Shown here: in pieces, positions 40,997 to 47,577 of the stretch | Layout of the letters: every line of letters starts with the position of its first letter | How positions within the stretch are numbered: position 1 is the first letter of the stretch | Origin: an uncultured bacterium | GTDB taxonomy: Bacteria > Actinomycetota > Coriobacteriia > Coriobacteriales > Coriobacteriaceae | Direction of reading: 5' to 3' | Assembly (NCBI GenBank): GCA_905214385.1 | Contig: CAJMMF010000005.1 | Coordinates: 16,345 to 80,344, forward strand | DNA: 64,000 nt | The notes under the pieces: model-generated | Database searches by the model: none | Told to the model about the DNA's origin: nothing | What the model saw: only the letters and a program-made list of their open reading frames with translations | Translations under genes and position numbers: made by a program

Positions 40997-41560
40997 TTAA
41001 GGCTCTTTTTTGCTTTGCACGCCCTTGGCCCACTCGGCACTGGCTCTCATGGCGTTCTCGAGGGCCTCGCGCAGTTTTTGGTCTTCGATGGGCGCCACTT
41101 GGCGCTCGATCTCGGTGCGCTCGGCCTCACTTAGGTCGGCGTGCGGGGCCGGCGGGCGCTCGGTCATCGCCGGGCGCAGGCGCTCCTTGGCGGCGGGTGG
41201 CGTGTGACCGGGCGCGGTAGTTTTGAACACCAGGCCGTCCACATGCGCACCGGCGCGCTCCATGCGCGCGCGGATGATCTCGCGCAGCAGCGTCATTTCC
41301 TGCGTCCATGAGGGCGAGTCGAGATACACCAGCAGCTCATTGGACTCGGGCAGGTAACGCAGCCCCGTCACATGCCGCCCCTCGCGCGTGCCCGAGCACA
41401 CCGCATTCCAGGCGCGATAGACCGCACGAGACTCCTCTGCAGCCTCCATCTGCGCACGACGCCTAGGCGTTGCAGCCGCCAGGATGCGCTGGCGCTCTGC
41501 GTTCAAAAAGCCACTGAAGGCGACCGTTTCGCTCTCGCGCTCGTAATCAGCACGTCTCAC
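40997..41560 (-). CDS. DUF721 (DciA-type) protein
   Basis: Sits at the conserved position between recF and gyrB. The DUF721-like core is AVYRAWNAVCSGTREGRHVTGLRYLPESNELLVYLDSPSWTQEMTLLREIIRARM. The start is GTG and overlaps the recF stop. Confidence 0.75.
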   Translation of the reverse strand: MRRADYERESETVAFSGFLNAERQRILAAATPRRRAQMEAAEESRAVYRAWNAVCSGTREGRHVTGLRYLPESNELLVYLDSPSWTQEMTLLREIIRARMERAGAHVDGLVFKTTAPGHTPPAAKERLRPAMTERPPAPHADLSEAERTEIERQVAPIEDQKLREALENAMRASAEWAKGVQSKKEP

Positions 41561-42653
41561 CCACGCTCACCACCTTGGCTCGATCAAGCAGGTCATCGGT
41601 AAAGTACCCCAGGTTGGTCGTAGTTATGACCGTCTGGATATCATCGCCGATCAGCCGCAGGAAAGCGCCGCGACGCTCGCCGTCGAGCTCGCTCATCACG
41701 TCGTCCAAAAGCAGCAGCGGGGCGGTGCCCAGGACATCGCGAGCCACGGCCACCTCGGCCACCTTCCAGGACAGTACCAGCGTGCGCTGCTGTCCTTGGC
41801 TGGCAAATGAACGGGCGGAGCGACCCGCCACGGTGAACTCGATCTCGTCGCGATGCGGTCCCACCAACGTCACGCCGCGGCGAATTTCCTCGTCGGCATG
41901 CTCGTCAAGGGCGGCCAGCATGCGCTCGTACGCCCAACCCTTCAGCTCTTCGCGATCCTCGACCTGGGGCAAATCCCCCAGCGTGGACGCATAGGTCACG
42001 TTGGCAGCCTCGCCGGACGCCACTTGCCCGTAGGCAGTGTGCACATGGCCCGCCAGCCGGTCGAGTAGGGCCAACCGGTGCACGAGCAGGGCCGAGCCCG
42101 CGCGAGCAATCGAATCGTTCCACGCGCCGAGCATCTCGCGACAGCACCAGGTCTCCTTGAGCAGGGCGTTACGCTGGGTCACGCAGCGCCCATAGGTGCT
42201 CGCAAGATCGGCATAACGCGCGCTCAGCTGCATGCCAAAGTCATCGAGGGCGGCGCGGCGCACACTGGCGCCTCGCTTAACCATGTCCAGATGGTCGGGG
42301 CAAAACAGCACGCTCGGCAGAATCCCGCGCACACCGGCGGCAGAGCATCTCTTGCCGTTGCGACTAAACGAGCGCTTACCGTCCTCCGCGCTCAATCCCA
42401 TATCAAGCACGCGGCCGTCGCCCTCGAGCCTCAGCTCGATCTTGCACGAGCCCACGCCGTCATGGACGAGCTCGGCTGCGGTCGGATGCCTAAACGAGGC
42501 GCCGCTCGTCAGCAGCTGCAGCGCCTCTATGAGATTGGTCTTTCCCGCCGCGTTGGGTCCCGCAAGTATCGTCACGCCCTCGTCCAGGGCAAGGCGATAG
42601 CTATCGAAGCTGCGGTAGTGCGCGACGGAAAGATCGCGGGCGAACATGGTCAT
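41547..42653 (-). CDS. recF: DNA replication and repair protein RecF
   Basis: Walker A is GPNAAGKTNLIEAL, the signature-like motif is SQGQQRTLVLS and Walker B is LLLLDDVMSELD. Confidence 0.95.
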   Translation of the reverse strand: MTMFARDLSVAHYRSFDSYRLALDEGVTILAGPNAAGKTNLIEALQLLTSGASFRHPTAAELVHDGVGSCKIELRLEGDGRVLDMGLSAEDGKRSFSRNGKRCSAAGVRGILPSVLFCPDHLDMVKRGASVRRAALDDFGMQLSARYADLASTYGRCVTQRNALLKETWCCREMLGAWNDSIARAGSALLVHRLALLDRLAGHVHTAYGQVASGEAANVTYASTLGDLPQVEDREELKGWAYERMLAALDEHADEEIRRGVTLVGPHRDEIEFTVAGRSARSFASQGQQRTLVLSWKVAEVAVARDVLGTAPLLLLDDVMSELDGERRGAFLRLIGDDIQTVITTTNLGYFTDDLLDRAKVVSVGETC

Positions 42654-42662
42654 GGCGCAGCG

Positions 42663-43766
42663 CTAGATGCGGACCGGCATGACCAGGTACAGGTAGTTGA
42701 TCTTGTCGTAGGACTTGAAGATGCCCGCCTGCGAGTAGCTCTTGAGCTCCAGCGTGATCTCCTTCTCCTTGGACAGGGCATTGAGGCAGCCGAAGATGTA
42801 GTGGTAGTTGAAGGCGATGGTACCCGACTCGCCCTCAGCCTCGACATCGATCGTCTCCTGCGCAAGGTCCTGGTCATTGGAAATGGAGGACAGGCCCATC
42901 TGCCCGTTCTCGACATCGATCTCGAACTTGACGGCGGGGTTGGCGCTCGCGATAACGGCCACGCGCTTGAGGGCGGCGTTAAAGGCGGCGACATCGATCT
43001 TGACGCTCGTCACGCACGAATCGGGGATGAGCTGCTTGTAGTTGGGGTACACGCCCTCGATGCGACGCGACACGTAGGTGGTGTTGCCGGCCTCGAAGAC
43101 GACCTGGGTGTCGGTAGCCCCGATCATGATGGTCGCCTGGCTGGCCATGATGTTCAGCGCGTCGTTAAAGGCGTCAGCCGGAACGTTGAGCTCAAAGGAG
43201 CCCTCGAGGGTCGAGGTCTCGACCTGCGTATCGCACACGGCCAAGCGGAAGGAATCGGTCGCCACCAGGCGTACGGTGTTGTTCTCGACCTTCATGTGCA
43301 CGCCGCCCAGGATGGGGCGAGCCTTGTCGGTCGAGGTGACGCGCCACACGCGGCCGACCATTTCGGACAAGACATCGGTCGGCAGCTCCACGGCACTCTC
43401 GATGGCATAGGCCGGAAACTCGGGGAAGTCTTTGGCATCGAGCGTGTTCAGCCTAAAAGAGCTCTTCTCGCAACCAATCAGCACCTGGCGCTCGGACAGC
43501 TCAAAGGTGACCGGGGCATCGGGGAGGGTCTTGGTGATATTGGAGAGCACCTTACAGGGGATAACCATCTCGCCCTCTTCTTCGACATGCGCCGCGATGC
43601 GATGACGGATCGAGATAGTGTAGTTAGAGGTCTGGAATTCCAAGATGCCGTCTTGGGCCTTAACGAGCACGCCCGACAGGATGGGAAGGGTGGATGCCGA
43701 AGCGACACCCTTCATAACGACGCCGATGGCTTGTGTAAGCGAGCTCTGGCTGACGGTGAACTTCAT
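42663..43766 (-). CDS. dnaN: DNA polymerase III beta sliding clamp
   Basis: 367 aa. Starts MKFTVSQSSLTQAIGVVMKGV. Sits at the canonical position after dnaA. Confidence 0.95.
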   Translation of the reverse strand: MKFTVSQSSLTQAIGVVMKGVASASTLPILSGVLVKAQDGILEFQTSNYTISIRHRIAAHVEEEGEMVIPCKVLSNITKTLPDAPVTFELSERQVLIGCEKSSFRLNTLDAKDFPEFPAYAIESAVELPTDVLSEMVGRVWRVTSTDKARPILGGVHMKVENNTVRLVATDSFRLAVCDTQVETSTLEGSFELNVPADAFNDALNIMASQATIMIGATDTQVVFEAGNTTYVSRRIEGVYPNYKQLIPDSCVTSVKIDVAAFNAALKRVAVIASANPAVKFEIDVENGQMGLSSISNDQDLAQETIDVEAEGESGTIAFNYHYIFGCLNALSKEKEITLELKSYSQAGIFKSYDKINYLYLVMPVRI

Positions 43767-44004
43767 CTTTTAATACCTTTCTATAGATATAAATATCTTA
43801 ATAATAGTAATAGCACTGACGAAACTGTTGATTACTCCCAAAGACGCAGGTCAGACCAAGAAAGAGAATCGACAGCAACCTGTGTGCAACAGGGGTGGTT
43901 TTCCACGTTCAAAACCTGCGCAAAACTTTTCATCACCGCGGGTTGGGTTTTAGACACCTTATGCCCGTGGTTTCGACAAGTTTTCAACAGGTGTCTCTAT
44001 TTCC
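43767..44004. other. oriC candidate: AT-rich unwinding tract plus DnaA-box-like sites (dnaA-dnaN spacer)
   Basis: A nearly pure A/T tract at 43767-43825. Box-like sites are TTTTCCACG (43899-43907), TTTCGACAAGTTTTCAACA (43971-43989) and TTTTCATCA (about 43927). There is also a palindrome CCTGTGTGCAACAGG (43879-43893). Confidence 0.7.
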
Positions 44005-45729
44005 CTACGAGCGCAGTGTAATTTTATCGCGCAGCGACTTGAGGTCTTCGGTGACGGTGCGGTCTTCCTGGATCATCTTCTGGACCTTTTTGTAACTCGT
44101 GCTGACGGTCGAGTGGTTGCGGTTGCCAAATTCGGCGCCCACCGCCGTGGTCGTCATCTCGCACATCTCGATGGCCAGGTAGATAGCGATATGGCGTGCT
44201 TTGGCGATATTGGCGTTGCGACGCGGGCCGATGAGCTCCTCGTGCGTCACGCCGTACTGCTCTTCGATGACGGACTGAACCGTCTGGACGTTGATCTTTT
44301 TGGCCGATGTGTCAAAGTACTGGCTGGCGATGGCGTCGATATCGTCAAAGGTGAGCTCCCCGCCCTCGCGCTCGCGGTCGCCCGCCTCGCCGGCGCAGCG
44401 CTCGCAAAAGCTCTCGAGTTCGCGGATGTTGGTGCCCGAGACCTCGGCCATGTGTTTAAAGTGCTCGTCGGTTAGGTGCCCGCCGTCGCCCCCATAGGCC
44501 GCCAGCAGCGAGTCGTCGCCTGCCTCGGGAGCGGCGACGATGGTGTTCTCGTAATAGCGCTGCAAGATCTTGTATTTCATTTCGTAGCTGGGCTCTGCGA
44601 CCAGGCAGAGCATGCCGGCGTTGAAGCGGCTGGTTAGACGCTCGTCCATGCTCAGGTCCTTGGGGGCGCGGTCTGCCGCGATGACGACCTTCTTGTTGTT
44701 GCGGATGAACTCGTCCATGAGCTGGAAAAAGTAGTCCACGCTCGCGCGCTTGCCGATGATGTTTTGGATGTCGTCGATGATGAGCACGTCCACGCCGTGG
44801 TACGCCTGCATGATGGGGGCGTTGCTCTTCTTTTGGCGGTCGAACTCGGTCATCAGGTCGTCCAGATATGCCTGGGAGTTGGCATACTTGACCTTGATCT
44901 CGGGCGACTTTTCGGCGAGCTCGTTTTTGATGGCAAGCAGCAGGTGCGTCTTGCCCAGGCCCGATTTGCCGTAGATGAACAGTGATGTGCACGTGCCCCG
45001 CTCGTCCGCGAGGGCGGCAAACTTGAGTGCCGAGCGATAGGCATGGCTGTTCTCGGGGCCGTAGACAAAGTTCTCAAAGGTAAATTTTGAGTTCGCGGCG
45101 AGCGGGGCTCCATCCGTATTCTGTTCGGCCGGCGCGGTCGGTGCTGGCATGGGTGAAGCGGGGGTCGCAGCTTGCGTGGATTTAGTTGGCGCTCCGCCCT
45201 TCATCTGGTTCATCATGCGGCGAAAATCATCGGCCGAGAGCGTGTTCTTGATTGCAATGCCCGAATCCGCGCCCGTCGTTGCGTCGTGAGCGATGGGCAT
45301 GTGCGTGACGGGTGCGTTCGTTGACGTCGCCGCCGCGGTCGGCAACGGTGCCATGGTTTCACGGGAAACATCGCTGTGCTGGTGCTCGATTGTCGGCACG
45401 TCGCCTGCGGAGGCCGGCACCGCCGGGGAAGCTGCGGGAGCCGTGGCAGGCGCCGTCGCGGCAGCGGATTCCGTCGCGGCGCCTTGCGGTGCCACGATGT
45501 CGAGCGCGATCGGTGCAAAGGCGATTTCTTCCAGATAGGCCTCAATGGTCGGCTGATGCTTTTTGAGCTGCGCGATGGCAAAGCGCGAGGGGGCCTCGAT
45601 CGTGAGCGTATCTTCGGTCAGGCTTATGGCGCGCGATTGCCCCAGCATGTTGATGAGGCGTGCATCTCGGCCGTCGCGCTGGCAAAAGGCGATGGCATCC
45701 CCCAGGATGATGCTTGCTTCCTCGTCCAC
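44005..45729 (-). CDS. dnaA: chromosomal replication initiator protein DnaA
   Basis: The AAA+ core is LFIYGKSGLGKTHLL and the domain IV motif is ARHIAIYLAIEMCEMTTTAVGAEFGNRNHSTV. A long Ala/Pro-rich linker is present. The start is the GTG at 45727-45729, preceded by GGGAGAG. Confidence 0.95.
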   Translation of the reverse strand: MDEEASIILGDAIAFCQRDGRDARLINMLGQSRAISLTEDTLTIEAPSRFAIAQLKKHQPTIEAYLEEIAFAPIALDIVAPQGAATESAAATAPATAPAASPAVPASAGDVPTIEHQHSDVSRETMAPLPTAAATSTNAPVTHMPIAHDATTGADSGIAIKNTLSADDFRRMMNQMKGGAPTKSTQAATPASPMPAPTAPAEQNTDGAPLAANSKFTFENFVYGPENSHAYRSALKFAALADERGTCTSLFIYGKSGLGKTHLLLAIKNELAEKSPEIKVKYANSQAYLDDLMTEFDRQKKSNAPIMQAYHGVDVLIIDDIQNIIGKRASVDYFFQLMDEFIRNNKKVVIAADRAPKDLSMDERLTSRFNAGMLCLVAEPSYEMKYKILQRYYENTIVAAPEAGDDSLLAAYGGDGGHLTDEHFKHMAEVSGTNIRELESFCERCAGEAGDREREGGELTFDDIDAIASQYFDTSAKKINVQTVQSVIEEQYGVTHEELIGPRRNANIAKARHIAIYLAIEMCEMTTTAVGAEFGNRNHSTVSTSYKKVQKMIQEDRTVTEDLKSLRDKITLRS

Positions 45730-45744
45730 TGTCTCTCCCGTTCT

Positions 45745-47097
45745 TTAGCTCTGAGCTCGCACGCGAGCGGCGCCGAGTTCGGTCAGATGGTATTTCTGGC
45801 CATGCTTGATGACCAAGCCGGCCTGCGCCAAGTCATTGAGCGTGCGTGACCAAGTGGGGGCCGAGTTTCCAAACGCCCTCGCCAGATCGGTGGCACCGCA
45901 CGCTTGATTTTGCGCCAGATAGCCCAGCGCGGCGTTGCCGCGATCGCTTACGAACACGTCCGGTTGTGGCTGCGCATACTGATTTGCTGCATTAGGATAC
46001 ATCATTTGAGCTGCTGGTTGTTGAGAACTCTGCATCGGCGGCATTTGCTGTTGAAAACTTTGAGGCCACTGGTGGTAAGGCTGCGGAGGCATCTGCTGGG
46101 CCCAGGGGTTGTACTGCTGCTGCGTCATCTGCTGGTACGGCTGCTGATATCCCTGCTGGTACTGCTGCGGGAACTGCTGGCCATACCCCAGTGGCGGCAT
46201 CTGCTGATATGGATATCCCTGTTGGTACGGCTGATAGCCCATTTGCTGGCCACCCGGTGCCCCCGTCGCCTGCTGCATTGCTGCTGTATCCTGATCCGCC
46301 AGCGGCATGGCCTCTGGCACGTTTGGCGGCATCGACATCGACGCCGCCTGGGGCTCTTGTGTAGGAAGCATTCCGGGCTGCTGCATCTGTCCCACGCGGG
46401 GCTGCATCTGTTGCGTTGCCATGGGCTGCTGCGCAAAAGCCCCCGGCAGGGGATATGCGGGCTGCTCCGTCTCGGGCCGCACGGCAGCACCGCGCCCGCC
46501 GGCGCGTTCGATTTCCTGCACGCGTTTAGGGTCCAGGCTTACCGTAACCACGGTGCCGTTGCCCATGTTGTCCTCGATGGACACGGCCCCGCCGGCGTTT
46601 TCCAAATACTCCTGCACCATGGGAAACCCTGCTCCGGTTCCACGGATATAGCGCTTCATCTTGCTGTTTGCGCTGGTAACGCCAAAGTCGAAAGCGCGCT
46701 CCTTGTCGTCGATGCCGGGTCCTTGATCAGCAAAGCGGATGGTGTCTCCGCCGTCCAGAATCGAGATGATGGGCTCGGCAAAGTGTGCGTGGATAAAGTT
46801 TTCGACAATCTCGCGGATGACCATGAGCGAGATGTGGCCACCTTGCTCTTTCATACACTGGTAGACGGTGTTGGTCGTCTCTTCCAAATACGTGCGGACA
46901 TCTTGCGGATCAATGACGATCACACGCGGTGTCGACAGCATGTCGTCATAGACGGCGATGCGCGCGGCGTACATGGCTTTTGGCGCCTGCGTGGTCGTCT
47001 GCTCGCCTTCCTTACGCTCTTCGCGCACGCCGGTGATGTGCTCGTTGTCGGGTGCCGGGTCTCCGGAATCGACCATGGTGTAAAAGTCGTCAGACAT
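45745..47097 (-). CDS. GHKL-type ATPase / Q,P,Y-rich low-complexity linker / C-terminal winged-helix protein
   Basis: 450 aa. The N box is REIVENFIHA, G1 is DQGPGID and G2 is GTGAGF. A stretch of about 160 aa contains 48 Gln (hand count). The C-terminal wHTH-like segment is GATDLARAFGNSAPTWSRTLNDLAQAGLVIKHGQKYHLT. The stop is 15 nt from the dnaA start. Confidence 0.8.
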   Translation of the reverse strand: MSDDFYTMVDSGDPAPDNEHITGVREERKEGEQTTTQAPKAMYAARIAVYDDMLSTPRVIVIDPQDVRTYLEETTNTVYQCMKEQGGHISLMVIREIVENFIHAHFAEPIISILDGGDTIRFADQGPGIDDKERAFDFGVTSANSKMKRYIRGTGAGFPMVQEYLENAGGAVSIEDNMGNGTVVTVSLDPKRVQEIERAGGRGAAVRPETEQPAYPLPGAFAQQPMATQQMQPRVGQMQQPGMLPTQEPQAASMSMPPNVPEAMPLADQDTAAMQQATGAPGGQQMGYQPYQQGYPYQQMPPLGYGQQFPQQYQQGYQQPYQQMTQQQYNPWAQQMPPQPYHQWPQSFQQQMPPMQSSQQPAAQMMYPNAANQYAQPQPDVFVSDRGNAALGYLAQNQACGATDLARAFGNSAPTWSRTLNDLAQAGLVIKHGQKYHLTELGAARVRAQS

Positions 47098-47340
47098 GCC
47101 GCTCGCAATCTTTCAAAAGGTTTCGAACAAATAGTAGCTCACCGTGCAATGTTTCTCATCTTTCGACAACTTTTCAAAACCTGTTGAAAACTTTGGAAAA
47201 CGGACGAAAAGTTCTCAACATTGCCAACATGACCTGTTGAAAACTCGATGAAATATCGTGAAAAGTTGCCATGCACCGCTAAATCGAGCTCGGCTTATGG
47301 GGGAACCGTGTGAACTGCGCAACCTTTTACCTTTGATTTC
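47098..47340. other. second DnaA-box cluster (rpmH-proximal part of a bipartite origin)
   Basis: TGTTGAAAA at 47182-47190 and 47235-47243. TTCTCAACA at 47212-47220. TTTCGACAACTTTTCAAAA at 47161-47179. Weaker variants (TTTTCCAAA, TTTTCACGA) occur on the minus strand. Confidence 0.65.
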
Positions 47341-47370
47341 TTGACATTTGAACATTGATTTCCCTACAAT
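47341..47370 (+). promoter_or_regulatory. rpmH operon promoter
   Basis: TTGACA (47341-47346), an 18-nt spacer, then TACAAT (47365-47370). Confidence 0.7.
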
Positions 47371-47442: not shown

Positions 47443-47577
47443 ATGAAGCGTACGTATCAGCCTAATAAGCGTAAGCGTGCCAAGACCCATGGCTTCCGTG
47501 CCCGTATGGCCACCAAGGGTGGTCGTGCCGTGCTCGCCCGTCGTCGCGCCAAGGGCCGCAAGCGTCTCACTGTCTAG
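47443..47577 (+). CDS. rpmH: 50S ribosomal protein L34
   Basis: Reads [55 protein letters not shown] precedes the start. Confidence 0.97.

Follow-up and report, generated by a model that had tools for sequence, protein, structure and literature searches.

A predicted GHKL-type ATPase with a winged helix encoded directly upstream of dnaA in Coriobacteriia

The control of replication initiation is known in detail for few model bacteria, and the regulators described there are lineage-specific. They include YabA, SirA and Soj in Bacillus, Hda and DiaA in Escherichia coli and HobA in Helicobacter, which act on DnaA or on oriC. To our knowledge, these proteins and DciA all lack a GHKL domain, and none of their genes lies directly upstream of dnaA. 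Here, we report the analysis of a 64,000-nucleotide stretch of DNA from an uncultured member of the Coriobacteriaceae (contig CAJMMF010000005.1 of assembly GCA_905214385.1, positions 16,345 to 80,344; hereafter the window) and of one of its genes, which we call X. Its product combines a predicted GHKL-type ATPase domain, a low-complexity linker and a C-terminal winged helix, and X lies directly upstream of dnaA, on the same strand, in all the informative loci that we examined. The YabA, SirA, Hda, DiaA/HobA, SeqA and Soj families gave no match to X in Pfam, NCBIfam and PDB sequence searches. Soj is a nucleotide-switched DNA-binding protein, and in this it resembles what we propose for X.

An initial annotation, made from the letters of the window and its translated open reading frames (ORFs), had placed the stop of X 15 nt from the GTG of dnaA, with the dnaA Shine-Dalgarno sequence GGGAGAG in the gap, and had divided the product into a Bergerat-fold core, a low-complexity tract and a C-terminal winged helix-turn-helix (wHTH). 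The sequence confirms this gene call (Table 1), Pfam matches and composition agree with the three parts, and the motifs cited for the core (REIVENFIHA, DQGPGID and GTGAGF) are all present. The ATG start is supported by an N-terminal motif, MxxxFYPF, that is common to many homologues. We took two plus-strand ORFs, one antisense to X (45904-47187, 427 aa) and one antisense to dnaN and dnaA (42078-44021, 647 aa), to be shadow ORFs of GC-rich genes, since homology and domain matches were all obtained in the minus-strand frames.

The ATP-binding core begins with a β-hairpin (ARIAVYDD..PRV) and a first helix, followed by the N-box helix (E96-x3-N100), the G1 motif (D124-x-G-x-G128), the lid (TSAN..MKRYIRG), the G2 motif (G153-x-G-x-G157) and G3 (G181-T). 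Pfam HATPase_c (PF02518) matches residues 93-190 with E=5.4e-11 and 43.4 bits, to be compared with a gathering score of 26.4, and it was found in 108 of 108 diverse homologues. In the alignment of these homologues E99, N100, H103, D124, G126, G128, G153, G155 and G157 are invariant and E96 is conserved at 90% or more, and the hairpin motif is family-specific and invariant or nearly so. With its N, G1 and G2 motifs intact, X is predicted to carry an ATP-binding GHKL domain. The AlphaFold model of the N-terminal domain (predicted local distance difference test, pLDDT, 73) consists of the β-hairpin, a long helix, the N-box helix and a Bergerat sandwich. Searched with Foldseek, this model gave its best E-values for histidine-kinase CA domains and BCK/PDK serine kinases, and these, together with PDB entry 3lmm, were its top matches, all at a probability of 1.00.

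The core is preceded by a tail whose extreme N-terminus has the family consensus MxxxFYPF[VI][ED]; this recurs in many homologues and is followed there by an acidic disordered stretch. Environmental clades have a MxxFF/FY variant, one short-form clade lacks the FYPF-type motif, and a crude search for F[FY] within the first 14 residues was positive for 181 of 387 family proteins. The motif resembles a docking peptide. A few representatives have 100-220 extra residues before the core (P0194, 708 aa; P0213, 442 aa; P0247, 393 aa; P0212, 356 aa), which may be mis-called starts or genuine extensions.

We showed that X occupies the same position in every informative locus, namely in 79 Collinsella genomes, 67 metagenome contigs and 10 individual look-ups: dnaA follows it directly on the same strand. 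The initial annotation had considered that homologues might be scattered and unlinked to dnaA, and we found no locus with a readable downstream gene where that gene is not dnaA. The order rpmH / X-dnaA-dnaN is present in 79 of the 80 species-level Collinsella genomes, the remaining one ending at a contig edge. The metagenome scan returned 80 loci, 67 of them with X then dnaA and the other 13 ending less than 700 nt past X, and rpmH is upstream of X in 25 of the 25 metagenome loci listed. The X-dnaA order was also found in a metagenome-assembled genome (MAG) from the Coriobacteriales (9-nt gap), in an Atopobiaceae MAG, in the short P0198 clade and in environmental contig L087; environmental contig L086 is too short for the ORF downstream of X to be identified. 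Finally, four long environmental Coriobacteriia contigs from the divergent clade have X then dnaA with gaps of 14-42 nt.

Wherever both sides can be read, the neighbours of X are rpmH (rnpA where rpmH is uncalled) and dnaA, with the exception of Raoultibacter, where dnaN is upstream. On the complete chromosome of Raoultibacter timonensis (AP025577.1), at the end of the record, the order is gyrA < gyrB < recF < dnaN < 886-bp spacer with DnaA boxes > X > dnaA. Relative to dnaA, the dnaN block is here inverted, and rpmH no longer lies on this side, so the X-dnaA pair survived a rearrangement that separated dnaA from both dnaN and rpmH. The 886-bp spacer may be the origin in this genus.

The spacer between X and dnaA measures 3-50 nt in Collinsella-like and environmental lineages, and 15 nt in most Collinsella-like loci. 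Two scans of the minus strand between 43600 and 47700 found no terminator-like or promoter-like site. The co-transcription of X and dnaA proposed by the initial annotation is therefore plausible, given this absence and the 15-nt spacer, and a tight operon coupling is likely in the lineage of the window.

X appears to be the founding member, here, of a coherent and unnamed family. Cluster representatives were searched exhaustively with residues 1-205, which gave 253 clusters (50% identity) at E<1e-30; these have in common a core corresponding to X residues 40-192 at 45-60% identity; at E<=1e-3, one search returned 1886 homologues, far beyond chance. The identical protein is present on 593 public contigs under the database name 'ATP-binding protein [Collinsella]'. 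The JGI/IMG auto-annotation of X and of family members is 'anti-sigma regulatory factor (Ser/Thr protein kinase)', and one NCBI MAG record labels a member 'histidine kinase'. No curated Pfam or NCBIfam family names X. The statement in the initial annotation that no characterised protein of this architecture was known at the locus holds after Pfam, NCBIfam and PDB searches, and no characterised family claims X.

All organism-named family matches come from Coriobacteriia (Collinsella, Raoultibacter, Atopobiaceae, Coriobacteriaceae and Coriobacteriales). They span both orders of the class as well as environmental MAGs, and the most divergent high-GC clade consists of MAGs named 'Coriobacteriia bacterium'. 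On the evidence available, the family thus seems specific to Coriobacteriia. The genome-contig scan used a single Collinsella sequence as query and returned Collinsella species only; beyond Collinsella, the survey relied on exact-protein context look-ups and on the metagenome scan, seeded with two other large clades. One contig labelled 'uncultured Ruminococcus sp.' (CAVCRP010000017.1) carries an X N-terminal domain 100% identical to that of Collinsella and is most likely mis-binned. X is a chromosomal gene, since no family member was found on viral contigs, phage genomes or plasmid records; defence-system and phage-protein libraries returned only generic wHTH or kinase-domain matches, and readings of X as a mobile-element or defence gene were dropped on these grounds.

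Across the class, the X core is 48-62% identical, to be compared in the same genome pairs with 29-38% for the AAA+/DNA-binding region of DnaA, 36-51% for DnaN and 37-49% for RecF. The X core is more conserved than each of these three proteins, which places the gene under stronger constraint than dnaA.

By contrast, the linker is highly variable. In X, residues 271-379 (nt 45961-46287; 109 aa) contain no D, E, K or R and carry YQQ/QGY repeats (Q 34%, P 17%, Y 11%). The length of the linker differs even between Collinsella proteins that are >80% identical (404-474 aa in total), and across the family it ranges from 9 to ~360 aa with varied mixtures of A, G, P and Q. Of 138 family representatives, 61 have a stretch of 60 aa or more without charged residues, again of varying composition. 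The commonest form of the family is a protein of 250-300 aa with a short linker and the ancestral form measures ~250 aa, so the 175-aa Q-rich linker of Collinsella is a lineage-specific expansion. The initial annotation had proposed that the Q-rich region could drive self-association. The tract itself stands, with 49 Gln in residues 206-380 where a hand count had given 48, but given the range of lengths and compositions it is not a feature that defines the family, and prion-like self-association would at best be a lineage-specific elaboration.

The C-terminal domain gives sub-threshold matches to several Pfam wHTH families, the best of which is HVO_A0261_N (31.8 bits vs a cut-off of 35), and no one subfamily can be named for it; wHTH families are matched in most of the 108 homologues. 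A full-length model of a 250-aa homologue (pLDDT 80) contains a very confident winged helix, a three-helix bundle with a β-wing at pLDDT 94-98, joined to the ATPase domain by a disordered connection; the relative orientation of the two domains in this model is of low confidence (predicted template modelling score 0.55). The modelled winged helix superposes on MarR, Hpr and a PhiH1-repressor-like protein at a root-mean-square deviation (rmsd) of 1.4-2.0 Å. In the Atopobiaceae MAG GCA_030525685.1 (locus L085, 6001-6923), X is found as two ORFs, a 212-aa ATPase and, 75 nt further, a 69-aa winged helix, and dnaA comes next. Either the domains are naturally separate here, or the low-complexity linker contains a frameshift or assembly error; the first case would show that the domains of X can work as separate chains.

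Table 1. Features of the X-dnaA region, in window coordinates.
Feature	Position	Strand	Basis or remarks
X coding sequence	45745..47097	-	ORF list: ATG start, 450 aa, TAA stop; HATPase_c above gathering score
X N-terminal tail, aa 1-36, predicted disordered, starts MSDDFYTMVD	46990..47097	-	pLDDT <50
X ATP-binding core, aa 40-192	46522..46980	-	Invariant columns (108 sequences), AlphaFold, Foldseek, hhalign to SpoIIAB
X low-complexity linker, aa 206-380 (175 aa)	45958..46482	-	Q 28% (49 Gln), P 18%, M 9%, Y 7%
X C-terminal wHTH, aa 385-444	45766..45945	-	Several Pfam wHTH matches, each sub-threshold
X-dnaA spacer, 15 nt, AGAACGGGAGAGACA	45730..45744	-	dnaA Shine-Dalgarno GGGAGAG at 45733-45739
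dnaA, GTG start at 45729, 574 aa	44005..45729	-	Pfam Bac_DnaA and Bac_DnaA_C; ORF list
Candidate -10 element TACTAT (TAnnnT type) of the X-dnaA transcript	47131..47136	-	Conserved (C)TAT column, ~35 nt before ATG
Conserved block of DnaA-box-like elements AGTT(T/A/C)TCAACA, alternating orientation	47161..47262	.	Box scans, footprint
Box 9-mers in the block	47171-47179, 47182-47190, 47192-47200, 47212-47220, 47235-47243	+, -, -, +, -	Box scans
rpmH promoter, divergent, TTGACA-18-TACAAT	47341..47370	+	11/12 scan matches; both hexamers conserved in footprint
rpmH coding sequence	47443-47577	+	From translation; divergent from X
dnaA-dnaN spacer	43767..44004	.	DnaA box 43981-43989 (+) within a 15-nt copy of AAGTTTTCAACAGGT
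Most AT-rich 40-mer, candidate unwinding element	43767-43806	.	GC 0.15; minimum-GC scan
DciA-family gene, between recF and gyrB	40997-41560	-	PF05258, 28.1 bits vs cut-off 24

We then compared X with proteins of known structure. In a PDB profile-sequence search, the best 60 of the 202 matches at E<=10 were listed, and among these the similarity of X to solved structures is generic only. The best sequence and Foldseek E-values went to CA domains of histidine kinases (PF02518; Thermotoga HK853, Geobacillus KinB and E. coli EnvZ), which, like X, have a Bergerat fold with N, G1 and G2 motifs. X differs from these kinases in being fused to a winged helix and in lacking a DHp/HisKA domain, a sensor or membrane segment and a cognate response regulator. 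Furthermore, histidine kinases usually have an Asn four residues before the Mg-binding Asn, where X carries a Glu. No HisKA-type Pfam match was obtained in X at E<=1, and the 90 residues before the N box are accounted for by the disordered tail, the β-hairpin and one helix. X contains no receiver, STAS or sigma domain, and no response regulator adjoins it in the loci with readable neighbours. This agrees with the initial annotation, which had seen no DHp/HisKA, receiver or anti-sigma partner near X; we found none in the protein or in the identified flanking genes. X is not a histidine kinase, since it has neither a DHp/HisKA domain nor a response regulator.

SpoIIAB/RsbW proteins are similar to X in that a small GHKL domain is preceded by a β-strand and a helix. 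Aligned with SpoIIAB by hhalign, the family profile gave a probability of 92.5% over 87 columns, with E96 and N100 of X on E46 and N50 of SpoIIAB and a similar lid segment, Q-P-x-F-T-S/T. However, X has in addition the tether and the winged helix and is always beside dnaA, with no STAS antagonist or sigma gene nearby. Indeed, no STAS anti-anti-sigma or sigma gene was found within 5-6 kb on either side of X in eight annotated loci. Pfam HATPase_c_2 (PF13581), which we take to be the SpoIIAB/RsbW family model, is not among the matches of X at E<=1. From its domains and neighbours, X appears not to be a SpoIIAB-type anti-sigma factor. As for the dimerising GHKL ATPases, Pfam gave no DNA_gyraseB, MutL-type or HATPase_c_3 match, and the PDB matches listed include only a weak one to MutL, in the N-box region. 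X is not of the GyrB/MutL/Hsp90/MORC type because it has no transducer domain, the disordered linker following directly after the ATPase domain.

A further structural counterpart is DIP2311 of Corynebacterium diphtheriae (PDB 3lmm), an uncharacterised structural-genomics protein. It gives the best superposition on the ATPase domain of X (TMq 0.52-0.60, rmsd 3.1-3.3 Å) and is the top match of the full-length short form, with an alignment that spans a GHKL-like domain and then a winged helix, in the same order as in X. Nonetheless, the two are only 12-15% identical, 3lmm is not among the best 60 of the 202 profile matches, and the DIP2311 chains (477-556 residues) have one or more extra N-terminal domains without counterpart in X. 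Finally, from the homologue model and the sub-threshold Pfam matches, the C-terminal domain of X is predicted to have the winged-helix fold of MarR/IclR/TrmB/Lrp/Csa3-type regulators. In those regulators the partner of this fold is a domain of another fold that binds small molecules or serves in dimerisation, whereas in X a disordered tether joins it to a GHKL ATP-binding domain.

In Bacillus, the origin is bipartite and dnaA lies between two clusters of DnaA boxes. The X locus has a similar layout, with a box array upstream of X-dnaA and an AT-rich segment in the dnaA-dnaN spacer. A degenerate DnaA-box pattern matched 14 times in the 64-kb window, and 7 of these matches lie within 43.9-47.3 kb. 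Per locus, there are 1-6 DnaA boxes upstream of X and 0-1 in the dnaA-dnaN spacer. The rpmH-proximal box cluster described in the initial annotation does exist; its statement that X is encoded inside the origin is valid in no stronger sense than for dnaA, which is itself within a bipartite origin of the Bacillus type. The array upstream of X also coincides with the position of the putative X-dnaA promoter. A footprint of the rpmH-X spacer over 12 moderately diverged relatives displays the rpmH promoter, a variable stretch and a block of ~110 bp with four box-like elements, which is the only conserved block besides promoter elements. The candidate -10 element of X was proposed on conservation alone and was not called by a scan for consensus sigma-70 promoters.

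The k-mers enriched upstream of X in 11 diverse loci are the DnaA box, as (G)TTTTCCACA or TTATCCACAG, and the ribosome-binding site, with no others. We considered the extended 13-15-nt motif AAGTTTTCAACAGGT as an X-specific site and rejected it: across loci, it is an ordinary DnaA box with commonly preferred flanks. Box-like matches in the X coding sequence at the N box, at 46799-46807 (+) in the window and also at 873 (-) in locus L088, are a coding artefact. Box scans always match there because the codons for V-E-N-F (GTn GAA AAy TTy) read TTTTCnAC(A) on the opposite strand. Separately, the linker-coding region contains two box-like elements 30 nt apart in the same orientation (46019-46060, minus strand), CAAAGTTTTCAACAGCAA, which encodes QSFQQQ, and CAGAGTTCTCAACAACCA, which encodes QSSQQP; the first matches the box motif of both spacers exactly over 13 nt. 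The pair is kept in 80 of 80 Collinsella loci, and SFQQ/SSQQ in 118 of 120 proteins of >80% identity despite changes in linker length. These could be functional boxes or a by-product of CAA/CAG-rich coding; all the sequences are close relatives and the evidence is weak.

The position of X, its conservation and its domain content suggest an action on oriC or on DnaA. We tentatively propose that X would be expressed together with DnaA, would bind DNA close to the origin or the dnaA promoter under the control of ATP, and would tune dnaA expression or DnaA activity, a reading that we hold to be possible and a little short of probable. X and dnaA would be transcribed from one promoter controlled by DnaA boxes, at least where the spacer measures 3-50 nt, and the winged helix of X would bind DNA in the origin/dnaA-promoter region. 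Self-association or partner binding would be switched when the GHKL domain binds ATP. X would thereby tune the expression of dnaA and/or the activity of DnaA at oriC, coupling initiation to the ATP or energy state of the cell, and would fill the role taken elsewhere by the unrelated lineage-specific factors YabA, SirA, Soj, Hda, DiaA and HobA. The uncharged Q/P/Y-rich tether of Collinsella may extend the reach between domains or promote multivalent self-association, as an add-on to the core mechanism.

Several points weigh against this proposal. First, a GHKL domain of the histidine-kinase/SpoIIAB type is more usually a kinase or a module that binds a partner than a DNA-dependent switch, and the E-x3-N motif of the serine-kinase/ATPase branches seen in the X family fits a kinase equally well. 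Second, no conserved operator beyond the DnaA boxes was found upstream of X in the 11-locus k-mer analysis or in the 12-locus footprint, and the winged helix could recognise DNA at another place in the genome. Third, the X-dnaA spacer is 70-220 nt long in several gut lineages, sometimes with DnaA boxes, so dnaA may have its own promoter there and the operon coupling is then not universal. The dnaA-adjacent gene order could also be kept for reasons of expression or gene dosage that are unrelated to replication. Finally, the restriction to Coriobacteriia is based on ~10 named matches and on clusters at E<1e-30, and full-text literature searches found no study of the X protein family.

A bolder version of the same proposal would make X the first GHKL-type ATPase in bacterial replication initiation and an essential DnaA partner specific to Coriobacteriia. 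Its ATP-bound state would bind and bridge or remodel the DnaA-box arrays flanking X-dnaA, or capture DnaA through the FYPF peptide, and so control when initiation occurs; the charge-free tether of Collinsella and other gut lineages would give rise to a multivalent, condensate-like assembly at the origin. We regard this version as distinctly improbable.

Among the alternatives, X might be a general transcription factor or a nucleoid-associated protein with a regulon unrelated to replication, whose position would provide origin-proximal dosage and growth-rate-coupled expression, the gene order being frozen by the operon. The winged helix does resemble those of generic MarR, IclR, TrmB, Lrp and Csa3-type regulators, and we detected no X-specific operator near the origin. 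The spacer of several lineages is long enough for independent transcription of dnaA, and the rnpA-yidC-jag-rsmG-parAB / dnaA-dnaN-recF-gyrB block already mixes unrelated housekeeping functions. However, the adjacency to dnaA outlasts the Raoultibacter rearrangement, the order is invariant in every informative locus of both orders and of the environmental clades, and the X core is conserved beyond DnaA itself, which is unusual for an ordinary local regulator. We consider such a general role to be somewhat unlikely.

An unlikely explanation, in our view, is that X works as a protein kinase, on serine or another residue, or as a partner switch like SpoIIAB, RsbW and PDK, anchored to DNA through its winged helix, and that its binding and/or phosphorylation of a protein partner depends on ATP. 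This partner could be DnaA, DnaN, DciA or a transcription factor, and any effect on initiation would pass through that protein and not through DNA. The profile alignment with SpoIIAB, its superposed Glu and Asn and its similar lid are consistent with such an activity, as are the BCK and PDK serine kinases returned by Foldseek and the name given to members by JGI/IMG. The absence of DHp/HisKA means that any phosphotransfer would go to another protein, for which the conserved FYPF peptide on its disordered tail could be a docking motif. On the other hand, X has no HATPase_c_2 match at E<=1, SpoIIAB/RsbW is not among the best 60 of the 202 PDB sequence matches, and neither a STAS antagonist, a sigma factor nor any obvious substrate gene is found near X. 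Moreover, no phospho-acceptor site can be proposed, and the winged helix is left unexplained if the target is a soluble protein. As regards a role in initiation, a kinase activity and our preferred proposal of an ATP-switched DNA-binding regulator are not mutually exclusive.

Finally, the idea that X is a degenerate two-component histidine kinase or an anti-sigma factor, as in some auto-annotations, follows from the CA domains of HK853, KinB and EnvZ being its best sequence matches and from the single NCBI record naming a histidine kinase, but it is highly improbable and effectively refuted by domain content: there is no HisKA/DHp or phospho-acceptor His helix, no sensor or transmembrane segment, no adjacent response regulator, and no sigma factor or STAS partner in the neighbourhood, all NCBIfam kinase matches are far below their cut-offs (e.g. 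23 bits vs 560), and the C-terminal winged helix of the family is lacking in such kinases and anti-sigma factors.

On the dnaA side of X, and on the same strand, are dnaA, dnaN, recF, a DciA-family gene and gyrB; on the other side, rpmH and rnpA diverge from X on the opposite strand and are followed by ORFs read, from their translations only, as yidD, yidC, jag and rsmG. The DciA-family gene is found between recF and gyrB in several related loci too. DciA acts in the loading of the replicative helicase, and the presence of this gene would suggest that Coriobacteriia use DciA and not loaders of the DnaC/DnaI type. Rv0004, the DciA-family protein of the mycobacterial dnaA-dnaN-recF-gyrB cluster, offers a precedent for an origin-proximal gene of unknown function that turned out to encode a replication factor. 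It is presented in the title of PMC5720831 as a 'new essential member' of the mycobacterial DNA replication machinery.

The DnaA of Collinsella (574 aa) has no Pfam DnaA_N match at E<=0.01 and contains a region of 130 residues rich in A, T and P (aa 86-215); the DnaA of environmental Coriobacteriia clades (460-475 aa) does match DnaA_N. Because domain I of DnaA is where DnaA regulators usually dock, the fact that it diverges in lineages with a long-tethered X may merit attention.

Many phyla have no identified DnaA regulator, a point that the abstract of PMC5720831 makes for mycobacteria. The domains of X are familiar, and one-component regulators and lineage-specific initiation factors are already known kinds. 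If X proves to be an ordinary regulator, the finding still corrects the misleading names 'histidine kinase' and 'anti-sigma regulatory factor'. Its natural series of tethers, from 9 to ~360 residues with recurrent charge-free Q-rich versions, provides a system for studying disordered linkers in a bacterial DNA-binding protein. Abundant gut organisms of medical relevance, among them Collinsella and Eggerthella, belong to the Coriobacteriia. With a predicted nucleotide switch and DNA-binding domain and a constant place before dnaA, X is a strong candidate for the missing initiation regulator of this class. If this were confirmed, GHKL would be a new fold among initiation controllers, and a GHKL ATPase controlling initiation would be new in kind.

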